A stretch of DNA of 11,943 bases from an uncultured bacterium (GTDB lineage: Bacteria > Bacillota_I > Bacilli_A > RF39 > UBA660), in NCBI GenBank assembly GCA_947169285.1, contig CAMVPB010000016.1:1-11943 (forward strand), in the 5' to 3' direction. This document shows, one piece after another, positions 180 through 11,943 of the stretch (position 1 is its first letter; every line of letters starts with the position of its first letter). The position numbers and the translations under genes are program-made. The notes under the pieces are model-generated. The model saw nothing but the letters and a program-made list of their open reading frames with translations. It ran no database searches and was not told the origin of the DNA.

Positions 180-2174
180 ATGGATGATTTAAAACTAATA
201 AAAAAGTATTATGGTGAAAATATGTCGCATTTATGTAGGAATTTATTTCCTACTATTTTAGAAACTCCTAGTTTATTGTTTGAAATATTTTCTAATAGCT
301 TTGATTATTCTAAATTTTTATATGATGATTTAGTCAGTAATGACTTAATAAATAGTTTTAGAGATTTTATATATAGTTTATTAGAGCACAAAATTGATAA
401 TGAAAAATCAACTATAAGTAAGAGCCCATATGAATTAATGGAAGAAGCAGGATATACTTTATATAAATGTGAAATTGAAAATGATATTCAAAGTTTTAAA
501 AAATATTATAATAATGGTGAAGAACTATGTACATTTAAAGGTGGACGGCTTGATTGGTGCTATGTGTTTTTTGCTGTTAAGAAAAATGCTGATAAAATAA
601 GAAGAGAGGATTTTAAAAATCCCCAAAGACAAGATGAATATGGTACATCAGTAATAAGTATTCAATTTAGTAAAGGAGATTCTAATTATTTATCAATTAA
701 AAACAGATATAATCATACTGTTATAAATCCTGATGCAACTTTTTCTAATGATTTAGATAAAATTATTCCTGGATTAACAGAGTCTTTTAAAAATTATTTT
801 AAATATGATATTCAAAGTAATTATAGTGGATTTGAGATTCCTGGTTATGTTAGGTCTTTTGAAGGAAAATATTATAAATATAATTATGAGAGAGGAATTT
901 ATTATTACTGTTTAAATAATGTGGTAATCGAAACTGGTAAAGTCAAAAATGAATATTTAGATAAAAATAGATATTTAGTTTTTGATTATTTTATATTAGA
1001 TATAAAAGAAAGAAAAATTGTTGATTCCCTAGGATATGGTGGATACTATGATTCATTTGCAAAAGTAATAAATGACTTAGACATTGAAAAGATTAGTATT
1101 ATCAAAAATAAAGATGGAAATAAAGATATTGTTTTTGAAATAGATGGTGGAAAAATTGTAATAACAATTAATAATCAAAATAGAATGATTAAATATTATG
1201 ATGATATTAATATAGTATTACCTGATTCTTATCTTTCAAGTATTGAATATATAACTGATGAGATAGTATTAAATAATGTTTCTAAAATAAATTATGATTT
1301 TATGGGTAGTAAAGAGCATATAATTGCTAATTTAAAAAGATTTTCAGCTCCTAATCTTGAATCAATCGGAAATATTTTTATGGAAGCAGTAGAATCAATT
1401 GATAATTTTTATACACCCAAATTAAAAATAGTGGGTGATAGGGTGCTAAGAAATTGTACTCTTAATAAATATGATTTATCTAACTTAGAAGTTGCAGGAA
1501 AATATTTTTTATCAAGTAATGAAACAAAAGAAATAAGTTTTCCAAAATTAGCGTTAGTTGGTGATGGTTTTTTACAAGAATTATATTGTGCTGAAATAAT
1601 TGATCTTCCAAATCTAAGGGAAACTGGTAAATGTTTTGTTAAAAAAGGATTATATTTGAAAAATATAAATGCTCCTAGATTAATTAGAATAGGAGAAAAA
1701 AGTTTACAAGATGTACCTTTTTTAGAAGAACTTGATTTGCAAAGTATCCAATTTATTTCCGATAATTGCTTAAAAAGTGCAATCAACTTAAAAAAAATAA
1801 ATATACCAGATGCTATTCAAATAGGAAGACTAGTTTTAAGTGATAATAGATGTTTGGAATATTTGAATGCTCCAATAGTTAGCCATATTGGTGGCTATTT
1901 TCTAGGCGGATTTAGTAAATTAAATTACATAAATTTAAATAAAGATGTTAAAACTGATTATTGTTTTATTGGATTAGATAATGGTTCTTGGATGCCATCT
2001 ATTGGACTTATAATTGGAAATGAAAGCATAGTTGATTTTATTAATAAAGCATATCAAAAATATAATGAAGATAATTCAAAATATATTACACATAGATTAT
2101 ATTCCTCTCAATTAGCAGAATCTTTGGATAAAGACATTTATGATAAACCAATTACTCTTGCAAGAACAAAATAA
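180..2174 (+). CDS. Hypothetical protein: unrecognised ~370-aa N-terminal region plus a C-terminal leucine-rich-repeat-like array
   Basis: This is a 664-codon ORF. From about nt 1290 to 1950 the protein has ~9-10 tandem units of 21-22 aa with the pattern xxFLxxxxxLxxhxhPxLxxhG. Examples are DRVLRNCTLNKYDLSNLEVAG, KYFLSSNETKEISFPKLALVG, KCFVKKGLYLKNINAPRLIRIG and DNCLKSAINLKKINIPDAIQIG. The pattern is reminiscent of bacterial BspA/LRR_5-type repeats. No N-terminal signal peptide is visible. The SD is weak (GGGA at 171-174). Confidence 0.85.
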   Translation: MDDLKLIKKYYGENMSHLCRNLFPTILETPSLLFEIFSNSFDYSKFLYDDLVSNDLINSFRDFIYSLLEHKIDNEKSTISKSPYELMEEAGYTLYKCEIENDIQSFKKYYNNGEELCTFKGGRLDWCYVFFAVKKNADKIRREDFKNPQRQDEYGTSVISIQFSKGDSNYLSIKNRYNHTVINPDATFSNDLDKIIPGLTESFKNYFKYDIQSNYSGFEIPGYVRSFEGKYYKYNYERGIYYYCLNNVVIETGKVKNEYLDKNRYLVFDYFILDIKERKIVDSLGYGGYYDSFAKVINDLDIEKISIIKNKDGNKDIVFEIDGGKIVITINNQNRMIKYYDDINIVLPDSYLSSIEYITDEIVLNNVSKINYDFMGSKEHIIANLKRFSAPNLESIGNIFMEAVESIDNFYTPKLKIVGDRVLRNCTLNKYDLSNLEVAGKYFLSSNETKEISFPKLALVGDGFLQELYCAEIIDLPNLRETGKCFVKKGLYLKNINAPRLIRIGEKSLQDVPFLEELDLQSIQFISDNCLKSAINLKKINIPDAIQIGRLVLSDNRCLEYLNAPIVSHIGGYFLGGFSKLNYINLNKDVKTDYCFIGLDNGSWMPSIGLIIGNESIVDFINKAYQKYNEDNSKYITHRLYSSQLAESLDKDIYDKPITLARTK

Positions 2175-2213
2175 TTATAATTGTAGTATATAATAATAAA
2201 GAAATTTTGAATG

Positions 2214-2242
2214 TTGACTTTGCAAAATGAGAAAAGTATGAT
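2214..2242 (+). promoter_or_regulatory. Sigma-A type promoter candidate upstream of a structured leader
   Basis: TTGACT (2214-2219), an exactly 17-nt spacer, then TATGAT (2237-2242). Confidence 0.4.
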
Positions 2243-2256
2243 AATATTAATTCAGT

Positions 2257-2272
2257 TAGTAATATATTACTA
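2257..2272. promoter_or_regulatory. Perfect 16-bp palindrome (operator or 5' stem-loop candidate)
   Basis: TAGTAATATATTACTA is its own reverse complement. It starts about 15 nt after the -10 element, so it lies at the start of the predicted transcript. Confidence 0.35.
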
Positions 2273-2288
2273 CTTATTATTTTGTGAG

Positions 2289-2394
2289 TCTTGGTTGTTC
2301 TACACAACTCAGATTCGTACCAAGAGGAAATCTGCTCGAACTTTTATAGTTTGAGCTCGATAAATGACTAATTCAGAAATGGATTAGTTTTTTT
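2289..2394 (+). promoter_or_regulatory. Candidate structured 5' leader or small RNA (class not recognised)
   Basis: Helices read by eye: TCTTGGT (2289-2295) with ACCAAGA (2319-2325); CAGATT (2310-2315) with AATCTG (2329-2334), which crosses the first helix in pseudoknot topology; GCTCGAAC (2334-2341) with GTTTGAGC (2349-2356), 8 bp including one G:U; and a terminal hairpin with a U-run. I found no match to any riboswitch consensus I can recall. Confidence 0.25.
2367..2394 (+). terminator. Weak intrinsic terminator or attenuator candidate
   Basis: ACTAAT (2367-2372) pairs with ATTAGT (2383-2388) across a 10-nt loop, followed by T-run 2389-2394. The stem is only 6 bp and AU-rich. Confidence 0.3.
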
Positions 2395-2432
2395 GTTATT
2401 ATGAAAAAACGTCCAGGAAAGGATGTGTTTCT

Positions 2433-2705
2433 ATGTTAAATATTGTTAAAGAAGAATTGCCTATTGAAGAGAGTCTAAAAAATAAAATCAATCTTATATG
2501 TGAATTTGCTCATGTGAAGCCTATATTTATTAATGGTAATATAAGAAAAATTAATAAAACCAATTTAGTTTATATTGAACCAAATAGAGTAATTGTTAAA
2601 GATAAAACTCTTCTTATATTTAATTATTCTAATGAAGTATTTATTGAAAATTTATCCAATAAATTAAAATTATCTGATTTAGAAGATTATTTGAAAAAGT
2701 GCTAG
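2433..2705 (+). CDS. Hypothetical 90-aa protein
   Basis: The ORF has AGGAAAGGA (2415-2423) 9 nt upstream of its ATG. I recognise no motifs. It sits directly upstream of the serine recombinase, so a role as a regulator or recombination directionality factor is conceivable but unsupported. Confidence 0.6.
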   Translation: MLNIVKEELPIEESLKNKINLICEFAHVKPIFINGNIRKINKTNLVYIEPNRVIVKDKTLLIFNYSNEVFIENLSNKLKLSDLEDYLKKC

Positions 2706-2709
2706 ACTA

Positions 2710-2738
2710 TTGACTTTAAAAGAAAAATTGTATATTAT
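2710..2738 (+). promoter_or_regulatory. Sigma-A type promoter candidate for the sORF and recombinase transcript
   Basis: TTGACT (2710-2715), a 17-nt spacer, then TATTAT (2733-2738), immediately after the stop codon of the 90-aa ORF. Confidence 0.45.
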
Positions 2739-2782
2739 AAATAACCATCAAAGAGAGTACCCTTAAGAAATGGAGGTACATC

Positions 2783-4748
<1,966 letters not shown>

Positions 4749-4761
4749 ATTATGAAAATAA

Positions 4762-4854
4762 TGCTCCCACAGAATTTTTAAAAAAATTGAAAACGGGAGC
4801 ATTTATTTCTTTTGAATAAAGGGATTCTTTGATTTGTAAAGCTCTGTGGGAGCA
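4762..4854. repeat. Perfect 12-bp inverted repeat pair flanking 69 bp
   Basis: TGCTCCCACAGA (4762-4773) is the exact reverse complement of TCTGTGGGAGCA (4843-4854). The GGGAGCA core also occurs at 4795-4801 and 4972-4978. Confidence 0.7.
4764..4813 (+). terminator. Possible terminator of the recombinase gene
   Basis: GCTCCC (4764-4769) pairs with GGGAGC (4795-4800). An inner AATTTTT/AAAAATT pairing may extend the stem. The T-rich tail ATTTATTTCTTTT follows at 4801-4813. The loop and internal bulges are large, so this call is uncertain. Confidence 0.3.
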
Positions 4855-4876
4855 ATTTTGCAAGTGCAAAATAAGT

Positions 4877-4926
4877 GGTGTCATAAAAATATATGTATTT
4901 CCTAGAAATATTTATATTTTGACACC
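4877..4926. promoter_or_regulatory. 50-bp imperfect palindrome (operator or serine-recombinase att-site candidate)
   Basis: The outer arms GGTGTCA (4877-4883) and TGACACC (4920-4926) are perfect complements. The inner blocks AAAA, TATA and TATTTC/GAAATA also pair, with two 1-nt offsets. The core is ATTTC-CTA-GAAAT (4897-4909). The right arm overlaps the -35 element of the promoter listed next. Confidence 0.5.
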
Positions 4927-4947
4927 TCATACTTATCCTGATATAAA
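4919..4947 (+). promoter_or_regulatory. Near-consensus sigma-A promoter with an extended -10 (distal operon promoter)
   Basis: TTGACA (4919-4924), a 17-nt spacer, then TATAAA (4942-4947). TG at 4939-4940 gives a TGnTATAAA extended -10. Confidence 0.55.
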
Positions 4948-5039
4948 AAAGTAATATTTTATGTATTCCATGGGAGCAAAAAAGTTGATTTTTAATTGTC
5001 TTATAATTCTTACAATATATGATAAACATTCAAATTTTA

Positions 5040-5068
5040 TTTACTTTTAAGTTTTTATATGATATAAT
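5040..5068 (+). promoter_or_regulatory. Second (proximal) promoter candidate
   Basis: TTTACT (5040-5045), a 17-nt spacer, then TATAAT (5063-5068), with TG at 5060-5061 giving an extended -10. It would produce a leader of about 22 nt before the ATG at 5097. Confidence 0.4.
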
Positions 5069-5096
5069 AAATGGCAATTTTGATAAGGGGTGTTTT

Positions 5097-6983
5097 ATGG
5101 GCTTGGATGCTGAAGATTTTATTATTAGTTTGCTTGCACCAGAAGAGATTTGGGGAGTAAATAAATTAGAACCATTAAAAAATTTTGGATTATATACTAG
5201 AGTAACTGATCTATGTGTATTAACTGGTGCAAAAGTTTTCGAAGGCCAGGGTCCCATAGGACTAGATGGCTGCTGGGTTTATACTACTGAAATCTGTGGA
5301 AGAAATGTAACAGCAATTTCACCAGATCAAAAAGTAACAACTGGAAACCAAAGCGATAATAGTGGAGTTATTCGTCCGATATTAAACTGTAAGCAAGACG
5401 TATTTAAAAAAATAACAAGCGGAGCATATTATATCGGAGTTGGTGTAAAAGAAGTTGAATTTGGATGCTATCCAGATTGCGCAGTAGATTGGAATTTACA
5501 GTTAGAACTTGAAAACGAGTTTAAGTGGAATGGATTAACATCATCTGGAAGACAATTTTCAAAGGCTGATTATCCGCCTGTTATATGGAAAGAATACGAA
5601 TATAAGGGATCGCAATATGTTAGAGTCGAATCAAATGCTAATACTTCAATATTTACACTATCCAATGGCGAAATATATTCAAATGGAGACTATGTGTGGT
5701 TGAAAGTTTTACCAATTAGATGGTTAGTAGATGAAGAAAGTCAAACTCTTATTTGTAAAGCCGGATTGATATCAGGTATTGCAGTTACTCCTGCTAGTTC
5801 TTCTATTTATTCATTTAGTTATTCTGATATTCAATACTTTCTCAAAATAGTGTTTTTACCTGAATTGTTAAAAAATATTTCTTTATTAGGAAACAAAGTA
5901 GTTGATTCACATCCTGAAAAGAAAGAAGAACCACTTCCAAGTAAAACAAAAAAATCAAGAAACCCATATGGATTTAGTATGAGTAATGTGAGTGAAGAAG
6001 ATATAATAAGAGGATGTATAGAAAGTAATCTATCTGTATTTTTACATGGACCATCTTCTGAAGGTAAGAGTGCAAGAGTAAAACAAATAGATCCAGACTG
6101 TGAAATTATATATCTAAGAAATGCAAGCCCAGAGAGTTTAAATGGCAAAAGCGTTTATAATCAAACAACTGGAGAAATGATAGATGTAAAACCAACATGG
6201 TTAATTAGATTAGAAGAAAAATGTAAAAAAGAACCAAATAAGAAACATATATTGTTCTTTGATGAAATAACAAATGCACTTCCTAGTATTCAAGGTATAG
6301 CATTCAATATAGTTTTAGATAAAGAAGTAAATGGAAAATGGAAATTACCAGATAATGCAAGAATAGTTGCAGCAGGAAATGAAATGAAAGATTCATTATC
6401 AGCAAATCAATTAGCAGAACCATTATTTAATAGATTTGCACATGTATATATAAAAACTACTACTGAAAGTTGGTTAAAGTGGGCAAGTGAGAATGATATA
6501 CATCCGGCAATATATTCATATATAGCATACAAAAAAGGAGAGGCTCTAAGAAGTAAGTATGACGGAAAGAAACCAAATGCAGATCCAAGAAAATGGGAGA
6601 TGGCATCAAAGATGTTATATAGTACACAAAACCCACAAATGTTAAGATCATTAATAGGAGAAGACATAACAAGAGAGTTTGTAGAGTTTTGTAACCAAAG
6701 AGTAATAACAATAGAAGATGTAGTGAATGAAAACTATACAGATAAAGATATCGAAGAATTAAACACATCGGAAAGATATGCAACAACAATGGGGTTATCA
6801 CAAGTAGATGAAACTAACTTAGAAAAAGTAAGAGAATTTGTAAGCAAGATAGGAGCAGAGTTCACATCAATGTTTGATTTATTATGGACACATAATGATG
6901 AGGCAAGATTAGAAAAGATAGCTGAATTAAATGCTTCTAATGAACAAGCAAAGATGTTAATAAAGGGGGGGAAATTAAAATGA
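5097..6983 (+). CDS. Paralogue 1: divergent ~288-aa N-terminal domain fused to a MoxR/AAA_5-like AAA+ ATPase
   Basis: I chose the start at ATG 5097, with SD AAGGGG (5085-5090) 6 nt upstream, rather than the ORF-track ATG at 5019. ATPase motifs are Walker A GPSSEGKS (6048-6071), Walker B ILFFDE (6249-6266), sensor-1-like RIVAAGNE, and LAEPLFNRF, which is analogous to the MoxR LxxxLDRF motif. A helical C-terminal region of about 170 aa follows. Confidence 0.9.
   Translation: MGLDAEDFIISLLAPEEIWGVNKLEPLKNFGLYTRVTDLCVLTGAKVFEGQGPIGLDGCWVYTTEICGRNVTAISPDQKVTTGNQSDNSGVIRPILNCKQDVFKKITSGAYYIGVGVKEVEFGCYPDCAVDWNLQLELENEFKWNGLTSSGRQFSKADYPPVIWKEYEYKGSQYVRVESNANTSIFTLSNGEIYSNGDYVWLKVLPIRWLVDEESQTLICKAGLISGIAVTPASSSIYSFSYSDIQYFLKIVFLPELLKNISLLGNKVVDSHPEKKEEPLPSKTKKSRNPYGFSMSNVSEEDIIRGCIESNLSVFLHGPSSEGKSARVKQIDPDCEIIYLRNASPESLNGKSVYNQTTGEMIDVKPTWLIRLEEKCKKEPNKKHILFFDEITNALPSIQGIAFNIVLDKEVNGKWKLPDNARIVAAGNEMKDSLSANQLAEPLFNRFAHVYIKTTTESWLKWASENDIHPAIYSYIAYKKGEALRSKYDGKKPNADPRKWEMASKMLYSTQNPQMLRSLIGEDITREFVEFCNQRVITIEDVVNENYTDKDIEELNTSERYATTMGLSQVDETNLEKVREFVSKIGAEFTSMFDLLWTHNDEARLEKIAELNASNEQAKMLIKGGKLK
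5961..6113 (+). repeat. Direct repeat copy 1 (junction and Walker A region of paralogue 1)
   Basis: 5991-6097 is identical at all 107 nt to 11821-11927. There is one mismatch at 6098 versus 11928, then 15 more identical nt up to the window end. The preceding 30 nt (5961-5990) have 7 mismatches. Confidence 0.95.
6965..6971 (+). other. G7 homopolymer: SD for paralogue 2 and a potential slippery or phase-variable site
   Basis: GGGGGGG lies within the last codons of paralogue 1 (AAG GGG GGG AAA TTA AAA TGA) and ends 8 nt upstream of the ATG at 6980. A G7 run is conspicuous in DNA this AT-rich. Confidence 0.8.
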
Positions 6984-9031
6984 AATATCCAGATGTAAGT
7001 TTATTATCTATGGATCAGATATATGATGATGATTTAAGATTTATTAAAAGATATGGGTCAAGGTGTTCTGCCACTGATTTTGCAATACTTTTAGGGATTG
7101 CTATATCATCTAATAAATTTTTTGATGATGTAGAATCACTAGAAAATAGGACGGTTGATTGGTGGATTGAATCTGATAAACCAGCATATGTGGATTCGGA
7201 TAGTGCAGACGTATTATATGGTGGGGATGGCTGGGATAATGTAACTGGAGGACGTCCGGTTGTACAGTTTTCTCAGATTTCAGATAAGTTAATATCTAAA
7301 AAATATTCTGATGGAGTTTTAGAAGTTGAATATGGTATGTATCCTCAAAGTGCAGTAAATTTTCATTTGAATAAAAAATTAGAAGAATTATATAATGCGA
7401 ATGCACTTAGCAAAGTGTTTTCAACTGAATCACTTGTAAAAACAGGTGATACTTATATTGTCGACGCTCAAGCTGGATATGATAATGAAAAGAATTTTGC
7501 TCCTGAATATCTTGAGGAGTATCAATATTTAAACTTTAAATATGTTCGTATTATTCCACATGCAGAACCAGATGGAGATATTTTGTCTAATGGGGTAACT
7601 CTTAGAGAAGGTAAACCGATTTGGGTAAAAGTTGAACCAATAACATGGTTAGTAGATGAAAATGCAGATATAGCAGTAGCTAAGAAAGTATTATTCTCTG
7701 GTGTAAGATTTTTAGATTTTCCATATAAGTATGAAAGCTTTGATAAAACACGTATAAATAAGTTTTTAAATGAATGCTTTATACGCGACATAAATCAAAG
7801 CCAAAAAAATTCTAGAGAAATTTTAATAGGTAATAGTAATAGGAATAAGTTAAGAAAAACAAACCCATATAAATTCAGTTTTGATGAAGTTACTGAAGAA
7901 AATATAATAAGAGGTATGGTAGAAAGTAATATTGCTGTGTTTTTGCATGGTAGATCAAGTGATGGTAAATCAGCTAGAGTAAAACAAATGGATCCAAATT
8001 GTGAAATTATATATTTAAGGAATGCAACACCAGAAAGTTTAAATGGTAAAAGTGTTTATAATCAAACAACTGGAGAAATGATAGATATTAAACCAACATG
8101 GTTAACTAAATTAGAAGATAAATGTGAGAAAGAACCCGATAAAATACATATATTATTCTTTGATGAACTTACTAATGCATTACCTTCAATTCAAGGCATG
8201 GCATTCAACATAGTATTAGATGGTGAAGTAAATGGTAAATGGAAGTTGCCAAAAAACGCAAGAATAGTAGCAGCTGGTAATGATTTAAATGATTCACTTG
8301 CAGCAAACCAAATGGCAGAACCATTATTCAATAGATTTGCTCATGTTTATATTAATACAACACCATCTAGCTGGTTATTATGGGCATCTACACCAACTAA
8401 TAATTATGAAATGATAGATTATAAAGAAGAAGAGTTACCATTAAAAATACATCCATCTATATATGCTTATATATCTTGTAAATCATTTGGTGGAAGGGAT
8501 GTTTTAAGAACAACATATGATGGAAAGAAGCCAAATGCAGATCCAAGAAAATGGGAGATGGCTTCAAAGGTATTATATAAAACTGGAAAACCAGAAATGT
8601 TAAGAGCATTAATAGGTGAACCATTAACAAAAGAATTTGTTGAATTTACTAAACAACAAGTCTTAACTTTAGATGATGTGTTAAAAGGAAATTATGATGA
8701 TGAAGAATTAGAAGAAATGGATACTTCTCAAAAATTTTTAATGATTGCAGTATTATCTGCAGTCGATGAAGAACATTTTGAAATAGCAAGAAATTTTATG
8801 AGTAAACTTGGAGAAGAACCAAGAGCTGTTTTTGACTCATTATGGACACATGGAGATGAAAAAAGATTAGAAAAACTTGCTGAAGTTAAAATGACAGAAG
8901 AACCAAAAATAATGTCAAAAGAATTACCGAAAAAAGAAAAAGAAAAAAGTACTCGTGACTGCTATGTAATTTATGGTAATCATGATTCTATTTATAATGA
9001 TACTTTTCATGTAAAGAAATTAAAAATATAA
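6980..9031 (+). CDS. Paralogue 2: divergent ~294-aa N-terminal domain fused to a MoxR/AAA_5-like AAA+ ATPase
   Basis: It overlaps paralogue 1 by 4 nt (ATGA, 6980-6983). ATPase motifs are Walker A GRSSDGKS (7949-7972), Walker B ILFFDE, RIVAAGND and LFNRF. From NPYKF onward it aligns with paralogue 1. It carries an insertion of about 15 aa (TPTNNYEMIDYKEEELPLK) and a longer K/E-rich C-terminal tail. Confidence 0.9.
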   Translation: MKYPDVSLLSMDQIYDDDLRFIKRYGSRCSATDFAILLGIAISSNKFFDDVESLENRTVDWWIESDKPAYVDSDSADVLYGGDGWDNVTGGRPVVQFSQISDKLISKKYSDGVLEVEYGMYPQSAVNFHLNKKLEELYNANALSKVFSTESLVKTGDTYIVDAQAGYDNEKNFAPEYLEEYQYLNFKYVRIIPHAEPDGDILSNGVTLREGKPIWVKVEPITWLVDENADIAVAKKVLFSGVRFLDFPYKYESFDKTRINKFLNECFIRDINQSQKNSREILIGNSNRNKLRKTNPYKFSFDEVTEENIIRGMVESNIAVFLHGRSSDGKSARVKQMDPNCEIIYLRNATPESLNGKSVYNQTTGEMIDIKPTWLTKLEDKCEKEPDKIHILFFDELTNALPSIQGMAFNIVLDGEVNGKWKLPKNARIVAAGNDLNDSLAANQMAEPLFNRFAHVYINTTPSSWLLWASTPTNNYEMIDYKEEELPLKIHPSIYAYISCKSFGGRDVLRTTYDGKKPNADPRKWEMASKVLYKTGKPEMLRALIGEPLTKEFVEFTKQQVLTLDDVLKGNYDDEELEEMDTSQKFLMIAVLSAVDEEHFEIARNFMSKLGEEPRAVFDSLWTHGDEKRLEKLAEVKMTEEPKIMSKELPKKEKEKSTRDCYVIYGNHDSIYNDTFHVKKLKI

Positions 9032-9047: not shown

Positions 9048-9437
9048 ATGAAAGATAAAAAGGAATTATTATTCTCATATATTAAAACTAATGTTGCTCC
9101 AATATTAGTAGATTTTATATCTTCTGAAGATTTAAGAAATGTAACAATATTACCTGCTAATATCGATTCTAAAGAATTGAATGGACATTATGAAGATATA
9201 AATTTTATGCCACCATATTGGTTTAATGAATTATTAAATAAGAACAATAAAATATTAGTTATTGATAGAATCGATTCAATTGATAAAGAAGAACAATTAA
9301 AATTTGTTGAATTATTAAAATATAGAAAAATATCTACTTTTGAATTACCAAGTGATTGTGTAATTATTATTACTGCTAGTGAAATAAATAATAATACTAT
9401 AAATGAAGAGATATTTTCATTAGTGGCTAGTATATAG
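9048..9437 (+). CDS. 129-aa degenerate (P-loop-less) copy of the paralogue ATPase core
   Basis: The SD GGGG (9035-9038) precedes the start. It aligns by eye to paralogue 1 as follows. ILVDFISSEDLR corresponds to VFLHGPSSEGKS, so the Walker A Gly and Lys are lost. DSKELNG corresponds to SPESLNG. PPYWFNELLNK corresponds to KPTWLIRLEEK. KILVIDRIDS corresponds to HILFFDEITN, so Walker B DE becomes DR. CVIIITASE corresponds to ARIVAAGNE. EEIFSLVA corresponds to EPLFNRFA, so the Arg is lost. Confidence 0.8.
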   Translation: MKDKKELLFSYIKTNVAPILVDFISSEDLRNVTILPANIDSKELNGHYEDINFMPPYWFNELLNKNNKILVIDRIDSIDKEEQLKFVELLKYRKISTFELPSDCVIIITASEINNNTINEEIFSLVASI

Positions 9438-9444
9438 GTGAGTT

Positions 9445-10917
9445 ATGAAATACGATATAGAAGCTTTAAAAAGAAAAATGTTAGTTAAATATCCATTCTT
9501 TGGAAGTGTTGTAGCAAATGTGGAATATAAAGAAAAAAATGATATAGAAACAGCCGCAACAGATGGAGAAGTTATTTATTACAACACAGATTTTTTACAA
9601 TCATTAAGTGTTGATGAACAGACTTTTGTTTTTGCGCATGAAGTGTGTCATATTGCTTTTAATCATATTTTAAGAAGTGAAGGAAAAAATCATAAATTAT
9701 GGAATATCGCAACTGATGGTGTTATAAATCAATTTTTAAAAAAGGATGGATTATCAATTCCACAAGGTGGAGTTGATATACCAGAAGCAATTAATTATGA
9801 TGCTGAGAAACTATATGAAAAATTATTAAAAGAACATCAACAAAATCAACAAAATAATCAATCTAGTAATCAAAATAGTAGTAATAATAACCAAGGCAGT
9901 TCTTCTAGTCAAAGTACAAGTGAGAACAATTCGCAAAGTCAACAATCTTCTAGTAGTTCAAATGAATCCAATAATAATTCAAACGATTCTAAAGAAAATT
10001 CACAAAGCAAAGATAGAGAAGGATCTAGTCAATCAAAAGAAGAAAACAAAGAGAAAAATGCTGGGCATGATAGTCATAGCATGTGGGATGATGCTGTAAA
10101 GAGAAGCAAAGAAAAACAAAAAAAATCTAAAGAAAGCAAAGATTCGAAGAAAAACAATGATAATTCTAAAGAATCAAAAGCAAAATCAGAAATTGAGAAG
10201 AAACAAGAGGAACTTGAAAAAATGGGTGAAAAAGATGCTTTTGATAAAAACCGTGAGGAAAAGAAAAAAGAATTAGAAAGACTAAAAGAAGAGTTATCTA
10301 GAAAAGCATCTCAAGCAGGAACTACAAGTAATGGTAATGTTAGAGAAGTTGGTAATATTGGTAATGCTAAACCATTAATTGATTGGAGATATGTTTTAAA
10401 AGAAACAATAAAATATGATGTTGATTGGTCTTATAGGAATGCAATGGTAGAAGATGGTGTTGTAATGGCTAATCTTGAAGAAATACCTATGCCTGAAACT
10501 GAAATAGTTTTAGATACTAGTGAATCTGTTAGTGTAACATTATTAAAAAACTTCTTAAAAGAATGTAAAAATATATTAAAGCATTCAAAATTAAAAGTTG
10601 GATGTTTTGATACAGAGTTCTATGGATTTACAGAAATAAGAACAGAAGAAGATATAGATAACATGAGATTTGAGGGAAATGGTGGTACTAATTTTAATAC
10701 TGCTGTTAACGCTTTTTCAAATCGTGTTGAAAATAAAATAATATTTACAGATGGTTACGCACCAATGCCAAAAAAAGCTATAGATGCAGTATGGCTTGTG
10801 TATGGTGATCGCAAAATACAACCACCTGGTGGTAAAGTGATTTATATCACTAGTGAGCAATTAAATAAACTTTATTCATTTAAAGATGATATTAAAAAAT
10901 TAACAAGGAAATTATAA
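9445..10917 (+). CDS. HExxH metallopeptidase-like N-domain, ~160-aa low-complexity linker, and C-terminal VWA domain with MIDAS
   Basis: HEVCH lies at nt 9637-9651 in the context FVFAHEVCHIAFNHI. An S/N/Q-rich then K/E-rich linker spans about nt 9835-10315. The MIDAS DxSxS motif is DTSES at 10513-10527, followed by GGTNF and IIFTDGY. The architecture matches what I recall as the Pfam DUF2201_N plus VWA-like DUF2201 family, which is typically encoded beside AAA_5 ATPases. This needs HMM confirmation. Confidence 0.9.
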   Translation: MKYDIEALKRKMLVKYPFFGSVVANVEYKEKNDIETAATDGEVIYYNTDFLQSLSVDEQTFVFAHEVCHIAFNHILRSEGKNHKLWNIATDGVINQFLKKDGLSIPQGGVDIPEAINYDAEKLYEKLLKEHQQNQQNNQSSNQNSSNNNQGSSSSQSTSENNSQSQQSSSSSNESNNNSNDSKENSQSKDREGSSQSKEENKEKNAGHDSHSMWDDAVKRSKEKQKKSKESKDSKKNNDNSKESKAKSEIEKKQEELEKMGEKDAFDKNREEKKKELERLKEELSRKASQAGTTSNGNVREVGNIGNAKPLIDWRYVLKETIKYDVDWSYRNAMVEDGVVMANLEEIPMPETEIVLDTSESVSVTLLKNFLKECKNILKHSKLKVGCFDTEFYGFTEIRTEEDIDNMRFEGNGGTNFNTAVNAFSNRVENKIIFTDGYAPMPKKAIDAVWLVYGDRKIQPPGGKVIYITSEQLNKLYSFKDDIKKLTRKL

Positions 10918-10929
10918 GGGGAGGAAAAT

Positions 10930-11943
10930 ATGAGTATTACAATTAGAGAAGTTACATTACCAACAAAAGAACAAGTTTTTAAATCCGGTTTAGATATTTT
11001 TATGACTGGAAAAGACAGAATATGTTTATTGTCTGATTTTGCAATACTAATGGGTTCATGTACTTCTGAAAATCCAAATTTCTTTCCTATTAACAGTAAA
11101 ATAAATTGGTGGTATTGTTTATCAGAAAATGGAAATCGTTTTGGAAAGGTTCGTACAAGTGGTTCATACAGTACTACTTCATGTGATAAATCAAATGGTG
11201 GGATTAGACCTGTTTTAAAACTAAATTCACCTGTAATGCCTAATGAAGGTTATATTAATTCAGAGGGGTTAGTAGAAGTAGAATTTGGTGAATATCCACA
11301 ATTTGCTGTTGATCCATTCTTTGGTAATACTCTTTCAGAACAACTTATGCATGGTCATTTAAAAGAGACTGGTAAAACATATACTCAAAATGCTATTTTT
11401 TCTGTAAAGGGATTAAATGCATTTGATCCAAAAGTGATAAAAGAATATGAATATAAAGGTCATAAATACGTGGTAGCAATGTCAAATACGTTTAATGATG
11501 AGCAAAAACTATCAAATGGTATGACTGCTAAATGTGGCAGCTTACATTGGATAGAAGTTGCTCCGATAAAATGGATATATGACAGGAAGTCAATGGCATT
11601 GATAAGTAAAATTGCTCTTGCTTCTGGAATTAGGCCTACTGATTCTAATGGAAAGTATCATGGATATTTTAAAACTACCGAGATGTATAGTTTCTTAAAT
11701 GACTATTTTCTTAAAGAGATTGTCCATAATAAGAACAACTTAATAGAAAAGCAAGAAAGTATATCGCAGAATTCTTTTAATAGAAGAAGAAATCCATATG
11801 GATTTAACATAAACAATGTAAGTGAAGAAGATATAATAAGAGGATGTATAGAAAGTAATCTATCTGTATTTTTACATGGACCATCTTCTGAAGGTAAGAG
11901 TGCAAGAGTAAAACAAATAGATCCAGAATGTGAAATTATATAT
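10930..11943 (+). CDS. Paralogue 3 (5' partial, runs off the window): divergent ~287-aa N-terminal domain fused to the same ATPase module
   Basis: It is absent from the ORF track because it has no stop codon. I translated it by hand as 338 open codons from ATG 10930, with SD GGGGAGG (10918-10924) 5 nt upstream. The sequence runs MSITIREV...SDFAILMG...NWWYCLSE...GGIRPVL...VEFGEYPQFAV...KEYEYKG...PIKWIYD...NPYGFNINNVSEEDIIRGCIESNLSVFLHGPSSEGKSARVKQIDPECEIIY. Confidence 0.85.
   Translation, partial: MSITIREVTLPTKEQVFKSGLDIFMTGKDRICLLSDFAILMGSCTSENPNFFPINSKINWWYCLSENGNRFGKVRTSGSYSTTSCDKSNGGIRPVLKLNSPVMPNEGYINSEGLVEVEFGEYPQFAVDPFFGNTLSEQLMHGHLKETGKTYTQNAIFSVKGLNAFDPKVIKEYEYKGHKYVVAMSNTFNDEQKLSNGMTAKCGSLHWIEVAPIKWIYDRKSMALISKIALASGIRPTDSNGKYHGYFKTTEMYSFLNDYFLKEIVHNKNNLIEKQESISQNSFNRRRNPYGFNINNVSEEDIIRGCIESNLSVFLHGPSSEGKSARVKQIDPECEIIY
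11791..11943 (+). repeat. Direct repeat copy 2 (junction and Walker A region of paralogue 3)
   Basis: It lies at an offset of exactly 5830 nt from copy 1; see copy 1 for details. Its extent beyond 11943 is unknown. Confidence 0.95.

Follow-up and report, generated by a model that had tools for sequence, protein, structure and literature searches.

Probable gene conversion between the constant ATPase modules of variable-head paralogues in a gut/rumen Bacilli-type bacterium

Concerted evolution by gene conversion is well known from the Neisseria pilE/pilS genes, the Mycoplasma MgPa repeats, the orphan modules of rhs/CDI loci and the duplicated tuf genes. The locus described here lies in a window of 11,943 nucleotides (nt), by which we mean the whole stretch of DNA analysed, and comprises an array of three paralogous genes, p1, p2 and p3, each of which encodes a variable head of about 290 amino acids (aa) fused to a constant MoxR-like AAA+ ATPase module of about 335 aa. 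At the head/module junction, p1 and p3 share a tract of 107 identical nucleotides, which is probably the footprint of a recent homologous gene conversion or crossover between the constant modules, recurrent in the lineage. As in the systems named above, homology-dependent exchange would homogenise one part of the gene while the other diverges, leaving mosaic tracts with variable ends, and the direct repeats are able to delete intervening genes. Unlike in those systems, it is the C-terminal enzymatic module that is homogenised and the N-terminal, ligand-binding-type head that is divergent. Each of the three copies is a complete open reading frame (ORF) with a ribosome-binding site (RBS), so there is no sign of silent cassettes. 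In kind, the tract itself is ordinary, a textbook gene-conversion footprint between paralogues; the setting is less familiar.

'Ternary' conflict systems of MoxR and vWA proteins coupled to diversity-generating retroelements (DGRs) have been described (Kaur et al. 2020, PMC7159879; Dore et al. 2024, PMC10907252). In these, a CLec/FGS domain is found at the C-terminus of the vWA protein or as a separate target, and VMAP is the third component (PMC7159879, PMC10907252). The present locus resembles them in combining a MoxR-type AAA+ ATPase with a vWA protein, in the DGR hypermutation of a ligand-binding domain among its relatives, and in allowing for multiple variable paralogues. It differs in that the head carrying the variable repeat (VR) is fused to the ATPase N-terminus, the vWA partner bears an N-terminal DUF2201_N zincin domain, and the third conserved gene encodes a 129-aa protein without a known domain. 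The hosts are small-genome gut Bacilli rather than the multicellular bacteria of the ternary systems, and the window itself is without a reverse transcriptase (RT) or template repeat (TR). A probable AAA_5-type ATPase fold with an adjacent VWA partner also recalls NorQ/NorD, CbbQ/CbbO, RavA/ViaA and the phage pair phrog_1297 and phrog_1314, although the ATPases of these pairs lack the 290-aa variable head. We found no description of the head-ATPase/zincin-VWA architecture in the literature on DUF2201, on DGRs with AAA proteins and Tenericutes, or in Roux et al. 2021.

The paralogues and the shared tract are arranged as follows.

5019-6983, + strand: paralogue 1 (p1), an ORF open from 5019 with its probable start at 5097 and its end at 6983
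5097-5960, + strand: p1 variable head, likely starting MGLDAEDF at 5097 with an AAGGGG RBS
5961-6983, + strand: p1 constant MoxR-like AAA+ module, with Walker A GPSSEGKS and Walker B ILFFDE, 'X-type' from 6098
5991-6097, + strand: tract copy A, in p1, encoding SEEDIIRGCIESNLSVFLHGPSSEGKSARVKQIDP with the Walker A motif GPSSEGKS inside
6098 and 11928, + strand: single mismatch, C (Asp) at 6098 and A (Glu) at 11928
6980-9031, + strand: paralogue 2 (p2), head 6980-7861 and module 7862-9031
10930-11790, + strand: paralogue 3 (p3) variable head
11791-11943, + strand: p3 ATPase module, start only, cut by the contig end
11821-11927, + strand: tract copy B, in p3, 107 nt and an exact match to copy A

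The initial annotation had reported an abrupt switch from divergent heads to complete identity, and its coordinates and counts are all exact: the two copies are direct repeats at an offset of 5830 nt, and beyond the single mismatch the identity resumes for 15 nt (6099-6113 and 11929-11943) up to the window end. The divergence claimed upstream of 5991 and 11821 is likewise borne out. In a codon alignment the p1 and p3 heads are 45% identical, with a synonymous divergence (dS) of 1.7, which corresponds to synonymous saturation, and a non-synonymous divergence (dN) of 0.88. The NPYGF linker (5957-5990 versus 11787-11820) has 7 mismatches in 34 nt.

Under the window's own codon usage, the probability of an identical choice of 41 codons for the same peptide is about 6e-12. 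Over the same 123 nt, p2 has 27 differences; it keeps 31 of the 41 residues, 9 of these through another codon. The repeat is therefore real and not a product of protein conservation or codon bias. This p2 stretch had been described as encoding nearly the same amino acids with many synonymous differences; the recoded residues agree with the second half of that statement, but at an amino acid identity of only 76% the first half was slightly generous. An explanation without any recombination would see in the patch no more than the best-conserved segment of the protein, an N-terminal helix plus Walker A, under strong codon bias in an AT-rich genome. Across the family, the protein sequence of the ATPase module indeed hardly varies, and the source has a low GC content of 22-32%. 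We give this explanation almost no credence in view of the codon-choice probability, the divergence of p2, a family-wide codon entropy in the tract of 1.0-1.24 bits, which is normal in that it is not below that of the rest of the gene, and the 13 differences carried by the p3 gene of a close relative (L085, below). The idea of a nucleotide-level functional element in the tract was rejected on similar grounds, namely the normal family codon entropy and the free differences in L085 and p2. An antisense ORF of 105 aa with a TTG start (5831-6148, - strand) overlaps the shared tract; it probably arose by chance and is without evidence as a gene.

To place the tract among relatives, we used loci, numbered here with L, of which a scan with the VWA protein returned 80 from metagenome-assembled genomes of the gut/rumen 'Bacilli/Tenericutes' type; all related sequences are short-read metagenome contigs. 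Full-length p3 orthologues occur as P0124 on L002, from a bovine metagenome, and P0002 on L003, with heads 86-95% identical in amino acids to that of the window p3. Their modules are 93.5% (L002) and 92.6% (L003) identical in nucleotides to window p1 over 5957-6960, and the orthologous flanks are 94.4% and 89.6% identical to the window. The window p1 module shows a dS of 0.27 and 0.33 against the p3 modules of L002 and L003, which does not exceed the divergence between orthologues; the orthologous p3 heads, window versus L002 and L003, show 0.16 and 0.29. The p1 and p2 modules, at 74% nucleotide identity, reach a dS of 0.84, and any pair of heads among the paralogues reaches 1.5-1.8. Low module dS between p1 and p3, set against saturated heads, means that the modules share much more recent ancestry than the heads.

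The ends of the tract differ by lineage. L085 is 91.8% identical to the window over p2, the 129-aa gene, the VWA gene and p3, and its p3 head is 95% identical in amino acids to that of the window, yet it has 13 differences within 5991-6098, those at 6068-6098 matching p2. The p3 gene of L003 has 4 differences within the tract, and that of L002 is p1-type already from 5963, whereas the window p3 switches at 5990/5991.

A further breakpoint lies at the other edge. Between window p1 and its orthologue on L001 there are 3 mismatches in 989 nt up to position 6097 and 52 in 863 nt thereafter (Fisher p ~1e-14). Breakpoint analysis, which the initial annotation had suggested, placed the maximum chi-square breakpoint at 6098, and none of the 2000 permutations reached it. 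From position 6098 on, the X-type module of p1 is distinct from those of L001, L002 and L003, which are 'Y-type'; the X-type is also found in a p1 tail upstream of p2 in L085. Among the four complete modules, 15 informative sites group by paralogue and 9 group otherwise, the latter clustered at 6727-6788.

A one-off domain shuffling event, in which the whole module was recently duplicated and the head then exchanged by cassette capture, without conversion going on since, would account for part of this pattern. The heads are unalignable, and a duplication that predates the strain splits would agree with the X/Y divergence of about 6% and its paralogue-specific sites (15 of 25). We nevertheless regard it as unlikely, as tract ends that differ among the window, L002, L003 and L085, p2-like bases in the L085 p3, the conflicting block at 6727-6788 and a 6098 breakpoint between two near-identical p1 genes all call for several exchanges that happened independently. 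Recent gene conversion or module exchange, as opposed to an old duplication, had been the reading of the initial annotation, and the relatives support it through the dS contrast, the lineage-specific ends, the 6098 breakpoint and the hybrid contigs described below.

The window is essentially a whole metagenome contig from a short-read assembly and ends 123 nt into the shared module of p3. The last 123 nt might thus represent a k-mer overlap or a repeat collapsed from the p1 path rather than true p3. The contig does end within a repeat of the kind that breaks de Bruijn assemblies, and six others (L086, L043, L055, L067, L072 and L073) stop similarly, ending about 110-480 nt into the ATPase module of the downstream copy. 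Such an artefact is very unlikely, however, given that the terminal sequence differs from p1 at 11928, that exactly these 123 nt, including the A at 11928, are found in the independent L002 contig with its complete p3 (and in L001), and that L003 and L085 carry complete or longer p3 modules. Presumably the repeat broke the assembly at the window end and in the six contigs, and co-existing variants in the samples may have contributed too. Only one contig, of 11,944 nt, is on record as encoding a protein identical to p1 (P0123); exact protein look-up gave no second copy of p1, p2 or the VWA protein, and a 58-nt exact pattern had no match in viral or genome collections.

The visible sequence also bears on what follows. 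The next X/Y difference falls at 6114, one base past the equivalent of the window end. Since the visible 123 nt of the window p3 equal those of L001 and L002, and the X/Y split is at 6098, p3 most likely continues beyond the contig end as a Y-type module that differs from p1 by about 6%. The complete identity of p1 and p3 would then most probably end at 6098/11928 and drop to about 94%, not to the level of p2.

Similar contrasts between head and module occur elsewhere in the family. Most loci contain a single head-ATPase gene, which precedes the 129-aa and VWA genes in the canonical position that p2 occupies in the window; some have extra copies, either in tandem upstream or downstream. Where such copies were compared, nucleotide identity in head versus module was 65% versus 98% in L079 (longest exact run 976 nt), 61% versus 96% in L030 (421 nt) and 87% versus 98% in L035 (907 nt), with the switch located within about -20 to +160 nt of the head/module junction in all three. 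In L030, each head has its nearest relative in another genome, whereas the two modules are nearest to each other (98% versus 86-87% aa identity).

Other arrays show copies that are alike throughout. Head-ATPase genes that are about 100% identical over roughly 1.8 kb, heads included, number four in L049 (7737-17187) and two in L059 (5771-9586); these may have been amplified in tandem very recently, or else the assembler passed through one loop several times. In L012, a single 914-aa ORF (357-3098) contains two ATPase-module matches, the first truncated and the second full, and is possibly a fusion from unequal recombination between tandem copies.

Taken as gene conversion or crossover, the tract would arise by exchange between the direct repeats that the constant ATPase modules form. 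Its 5' edge falls at the head/module junction because alignable homology starts there, the heads being 45-50% identical and too divergent for strand exchange, and its 3' edge would most probably lie at 6098/11928. That conversion is recurrent in the lineage, with p2 also involved, is well supported. The agent is presumably RecA-dependent recombination, and a plausible selective force would be that all motors must fit a single 129-aa/VWA-zincin partner set or co-assemble.

Crossing-over within the tract would yield a gene with a p1 head and a p3 tail, at the loss of p2, the 129-aa gene, the VWA gene and the p3 head. L001 has the corresponding form, a p1 head joined to a Y-type module and a p3-like C-terminus (KILSHSLK versus KILSYSSK), and 344 nt of it match the sequence downstream of p3 in L002 at 80% identity. 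P0001 likewise combines the p1 head with a p3-type module and the spacer that follows p3. Its contig (8,670 nt) carries the same recombinase as the window at the same 349-nt spacing to p1; downstream of p1 it has unrelated minus-strand genes and is without p2, the 129-aa gene and the VWA gene. These hybrids fit the predicted product of a crossover within the shared tract, unless they are assembly chimeras. In L001's assembly, the only p3-type head recovered (on L087) is just 71% identical, which mildly favours the hybrid as a real variant. The initial annotation had foreseen that homologous recombination would swap heads or delete p2 and the VWA gene. The deletion part is matched by the L001 and P0001 contigs; the swap is not, as direct repeats delete rather than swap.

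Several points weigh against recurrent conversion as the explanation. Only 123 nt of the p3 module are visible, so that the comparison of p1 and p3 within one genome stops there. The tract is identical in the window and L002 despite a flank difference of about 6%, which implies either very recent independent conversions or exchange of the segment at the population level. Loop resolution by the assembler could inflate the long exact repeats in L079, L030, L035, L049 and L059, and the p1-head/p3-tail hybrid may have arisen in the assembly graph, by passage across the shared junction of 107-141 nt.

The window contains seven long genes, all on the + strand, and the remaining features are these.

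180-2174, + strand: BspA-type leucine-rich-repeat protein, upstream of the recombinase
2895-4748, + strand: large serine recombinase, upstream of the array
4750-4990, no strand assigned: spacer separating the recombinase from p1, with the motif TGCTCCC in four copies
9048-9437, + strand: gene for the 129-aa partner protein, conserved across related loci
9445-10917, + strand: VWA protein with a DUF2201_N zincin domain (HEVCH), a DUF2201 VWA domain and a long low-complexity linker
5289-5390 (p1), 7172-7270 (p2) and 11122-11223 (p3), + strand: VR-equivalents in the heads, matching the position of the DGR variable repeat of relatives

The spacer at 4750-4990 is an inverted copy, about 75-80% identical, of the spacer that follows p3 in L002 (2320-2580) and L001 (1880-2140). 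The array is thus bracketed by inverted repeats of about 240 nt, the p3-side copy being known from L002 and L001. The motif TGCTCCC occurs 4 times in the window spacer, compared with 0.33 occurrences expected in the whole window, and several hairpins are found there. These features, with a serine recombinase directly upstream and with both hybrid and full arrays in existence, could be taken as a dedicated device for cassette exchange or phase variation, in which tract, inverted spacers and recombinase act together in programmed head switching. We consider this highly improbable. Among the related loci searched, the recombinase has only 4 distant matches and is not conserved beside the array; the tract is a direct repeat in ordinary coding sequence without family-wide nucleotide conservation, which would promote deletion and not a swap; and no alternative orientations were seen. 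The locus accordingly lacks the make-up of a shufflon or invertible cassette, where short recombinase target repeats border the cassettes and the recombinase is linked to the array; the inverted spacer pair of about 240 nt was all that was found in this respect.

The ATPase module scores 18.7 bits against Pfam AAA_5, below the 22-bit cut-off, and matches the ATPase family phrog_1297 with an expectation value (E) of 2.8e-53. By Foldseek, the top matches of the module are NorQ, dynein AAA, McrB and the MoxR protein CHU_0153, at low TM-scores. The ATPases of N4-like and jumbo phages share 24-32% protein identity with those of the p1/p2/p3 family. A phage origin of the locus was considered and is not supported: besides this low protein identity, 50,697 phage records searched in near and distant mode yielded no match at the DNA level. 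The family is large, with at least 2,634 proteins at E<=1e-5, the best 120 of which are without a name or Pfam domain.

The VWA protein matches DUF2201_N (E 1e-36), the DUF2201 VWA-like domain (E 1.1e-12) and phrog_1314 (E 8.5e-66), and an adjacent VWA partner is conserved in 86 related loci. The HExxH and VWA domains of this protein are separated by a linker of about 160 residues (~130-290) in which S, N, Q, K and E predominate, and the low complexity of the linker gives spurious 'tail fiber' and TolA matches. The 129-aa protein has a tblastn match (E<=1e-8) in 75 related loci and no match in Pfam, NCBIfam or PADLOC. The label 'pseudo-ATPase' that the initial annotation had given to it is not confirmed, as there is only a weak PHROG match (E 0.003) and no pairwise similarity. 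None of the 8 window proteins has a match in PADLOC-DB v2.

The head is less readily assigned. An AF2 model of the p1 head has a predicted template-modelling score (pTM) of 0.81; by Foldseek, it has no match better than E 0.04 in PDB or BFVD, and PDB sequence profiles contain nothing credible for the head. DUF6273, a C-type-lectin-like domain and DGR target (PMC10743442; bioRxiv 10.1101/2024.10.15.618418), is matched by 15 of 72 family heads at E<=0.01 (best E 6.8e-7), these matches being partial and mostly below the gathering score; the p3 head reaches 21.3 bits with a cut-off of 23.5. The VR is close to the protein's N-terminus, as it is in the tentaclins, which are DUF6273/Mtd-like DGR targets, and a G-x-VRPAL-type motif stands at its end. 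Unlike the tentaclins, the present proteins are apparently cytoplasmic ATPase fusions and not phage tail proteins, and their DUF6273 matches are partial.

In relatives, the head lies beside a DGR. Homologues of 642 aa, 58% identical to p1, are encoded directly downstream of a 339-aa RVT_1 reverse transcriptase. In L090, a 100-nt TR (5233-5332) is flanked by an Avd-like ORF (NF033474, E 1.9e-5) on one side and the RT on the other, with the VR at 6867-6966; the TR and head nucleotides 215-314 are 91% identical, and all but one of the 9 mismatches are at template adenines. Across 93 sequences (92 related loci and the window), an RT match, in some cases a remnant, occurs directly upstream of the head-ATPase gene in 22. 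A TR/VR pair whose mismatches fall mostly at TR adenines was found at 15 of these 22 loci: adenines account for 14 of 14 mismatches in L018, 10 of 10 in L021, 12 of 12 in L022, 16 of 17 in L056 and 13 of 14 in L063, and the arrangement is also present in L016, L049, L064, L069, L084, L091 and L092. L073 has one TR and two target paralogues. Judging by these sequence signatures, the head is a DGR target hypermutated by an Avd-TR-RT cassette in relatives.

We found no RT match and no TR-like repeat in the window. Its VR-equivalents are not GC-rich, and that of p3 is conserved among p3 orthologues, so no DGR appears to be active in the window now. In L009, L014, L045, L058 and L080, tblastn detects only RT fragments (28-240 aa) upstream of the head-ATPase gene. 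These remnants suggest that the DGR has decayed or been lost repeatedly, the target-ATPase and VWA genes being retained.

Other neighbours vary. Directly 3' of the p3 orthologue in L002 (2748-4552) are SLATT_4 and SMODS/AGS_C genes, which are CBASS-like nucleotide-signalling defence components; these neighbours hint that the array sits in a defence-island-like neighbourhood. The BspA-type protein of the window has a single homologue in the fetched loci, 42% identical, near the array of L030 (7063-8532). Rfam searches returned nothing in the window, L001, L002, L003 or L085, and no tRNA was found, hence no clue to an att site.

Repeats such as the present tract carry a practical warning, as metagenome contigs break off at them and hybrid genes may be either produced or masked in this way. 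At the tract, a variable head of the ligand-binding type meets a constant MoxR-like motor, in a large gut/rumen Bacilli family, and the setting, as far as its sequences go, adds a new architecture and a new host group with reduced genomes to the known DGR-coupled MoxR-vWA systems. We speculate, and hold it rather doubtful as a whole, that this is a receptor-like 'variable head / constant motor' immune or conflict system of small-genome gut Bacilli, in which sensor heads of the DGR-target type would be diversified in two interchangeable ways, by a DGR or, where it is lost, as in the window, by arrays of divergent paralogues, and the junction of variable and constant parts would be a selected recombination joint that keeps the motors compatible with the single 129-aa/VWA-zincin partner set while being able to reassort or delete heads. 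If the modules really stay interchangeable, the family would offer a tractable case in which hypermutation, paralogue expansion and recombination together vary a sensor and conserve its engine.

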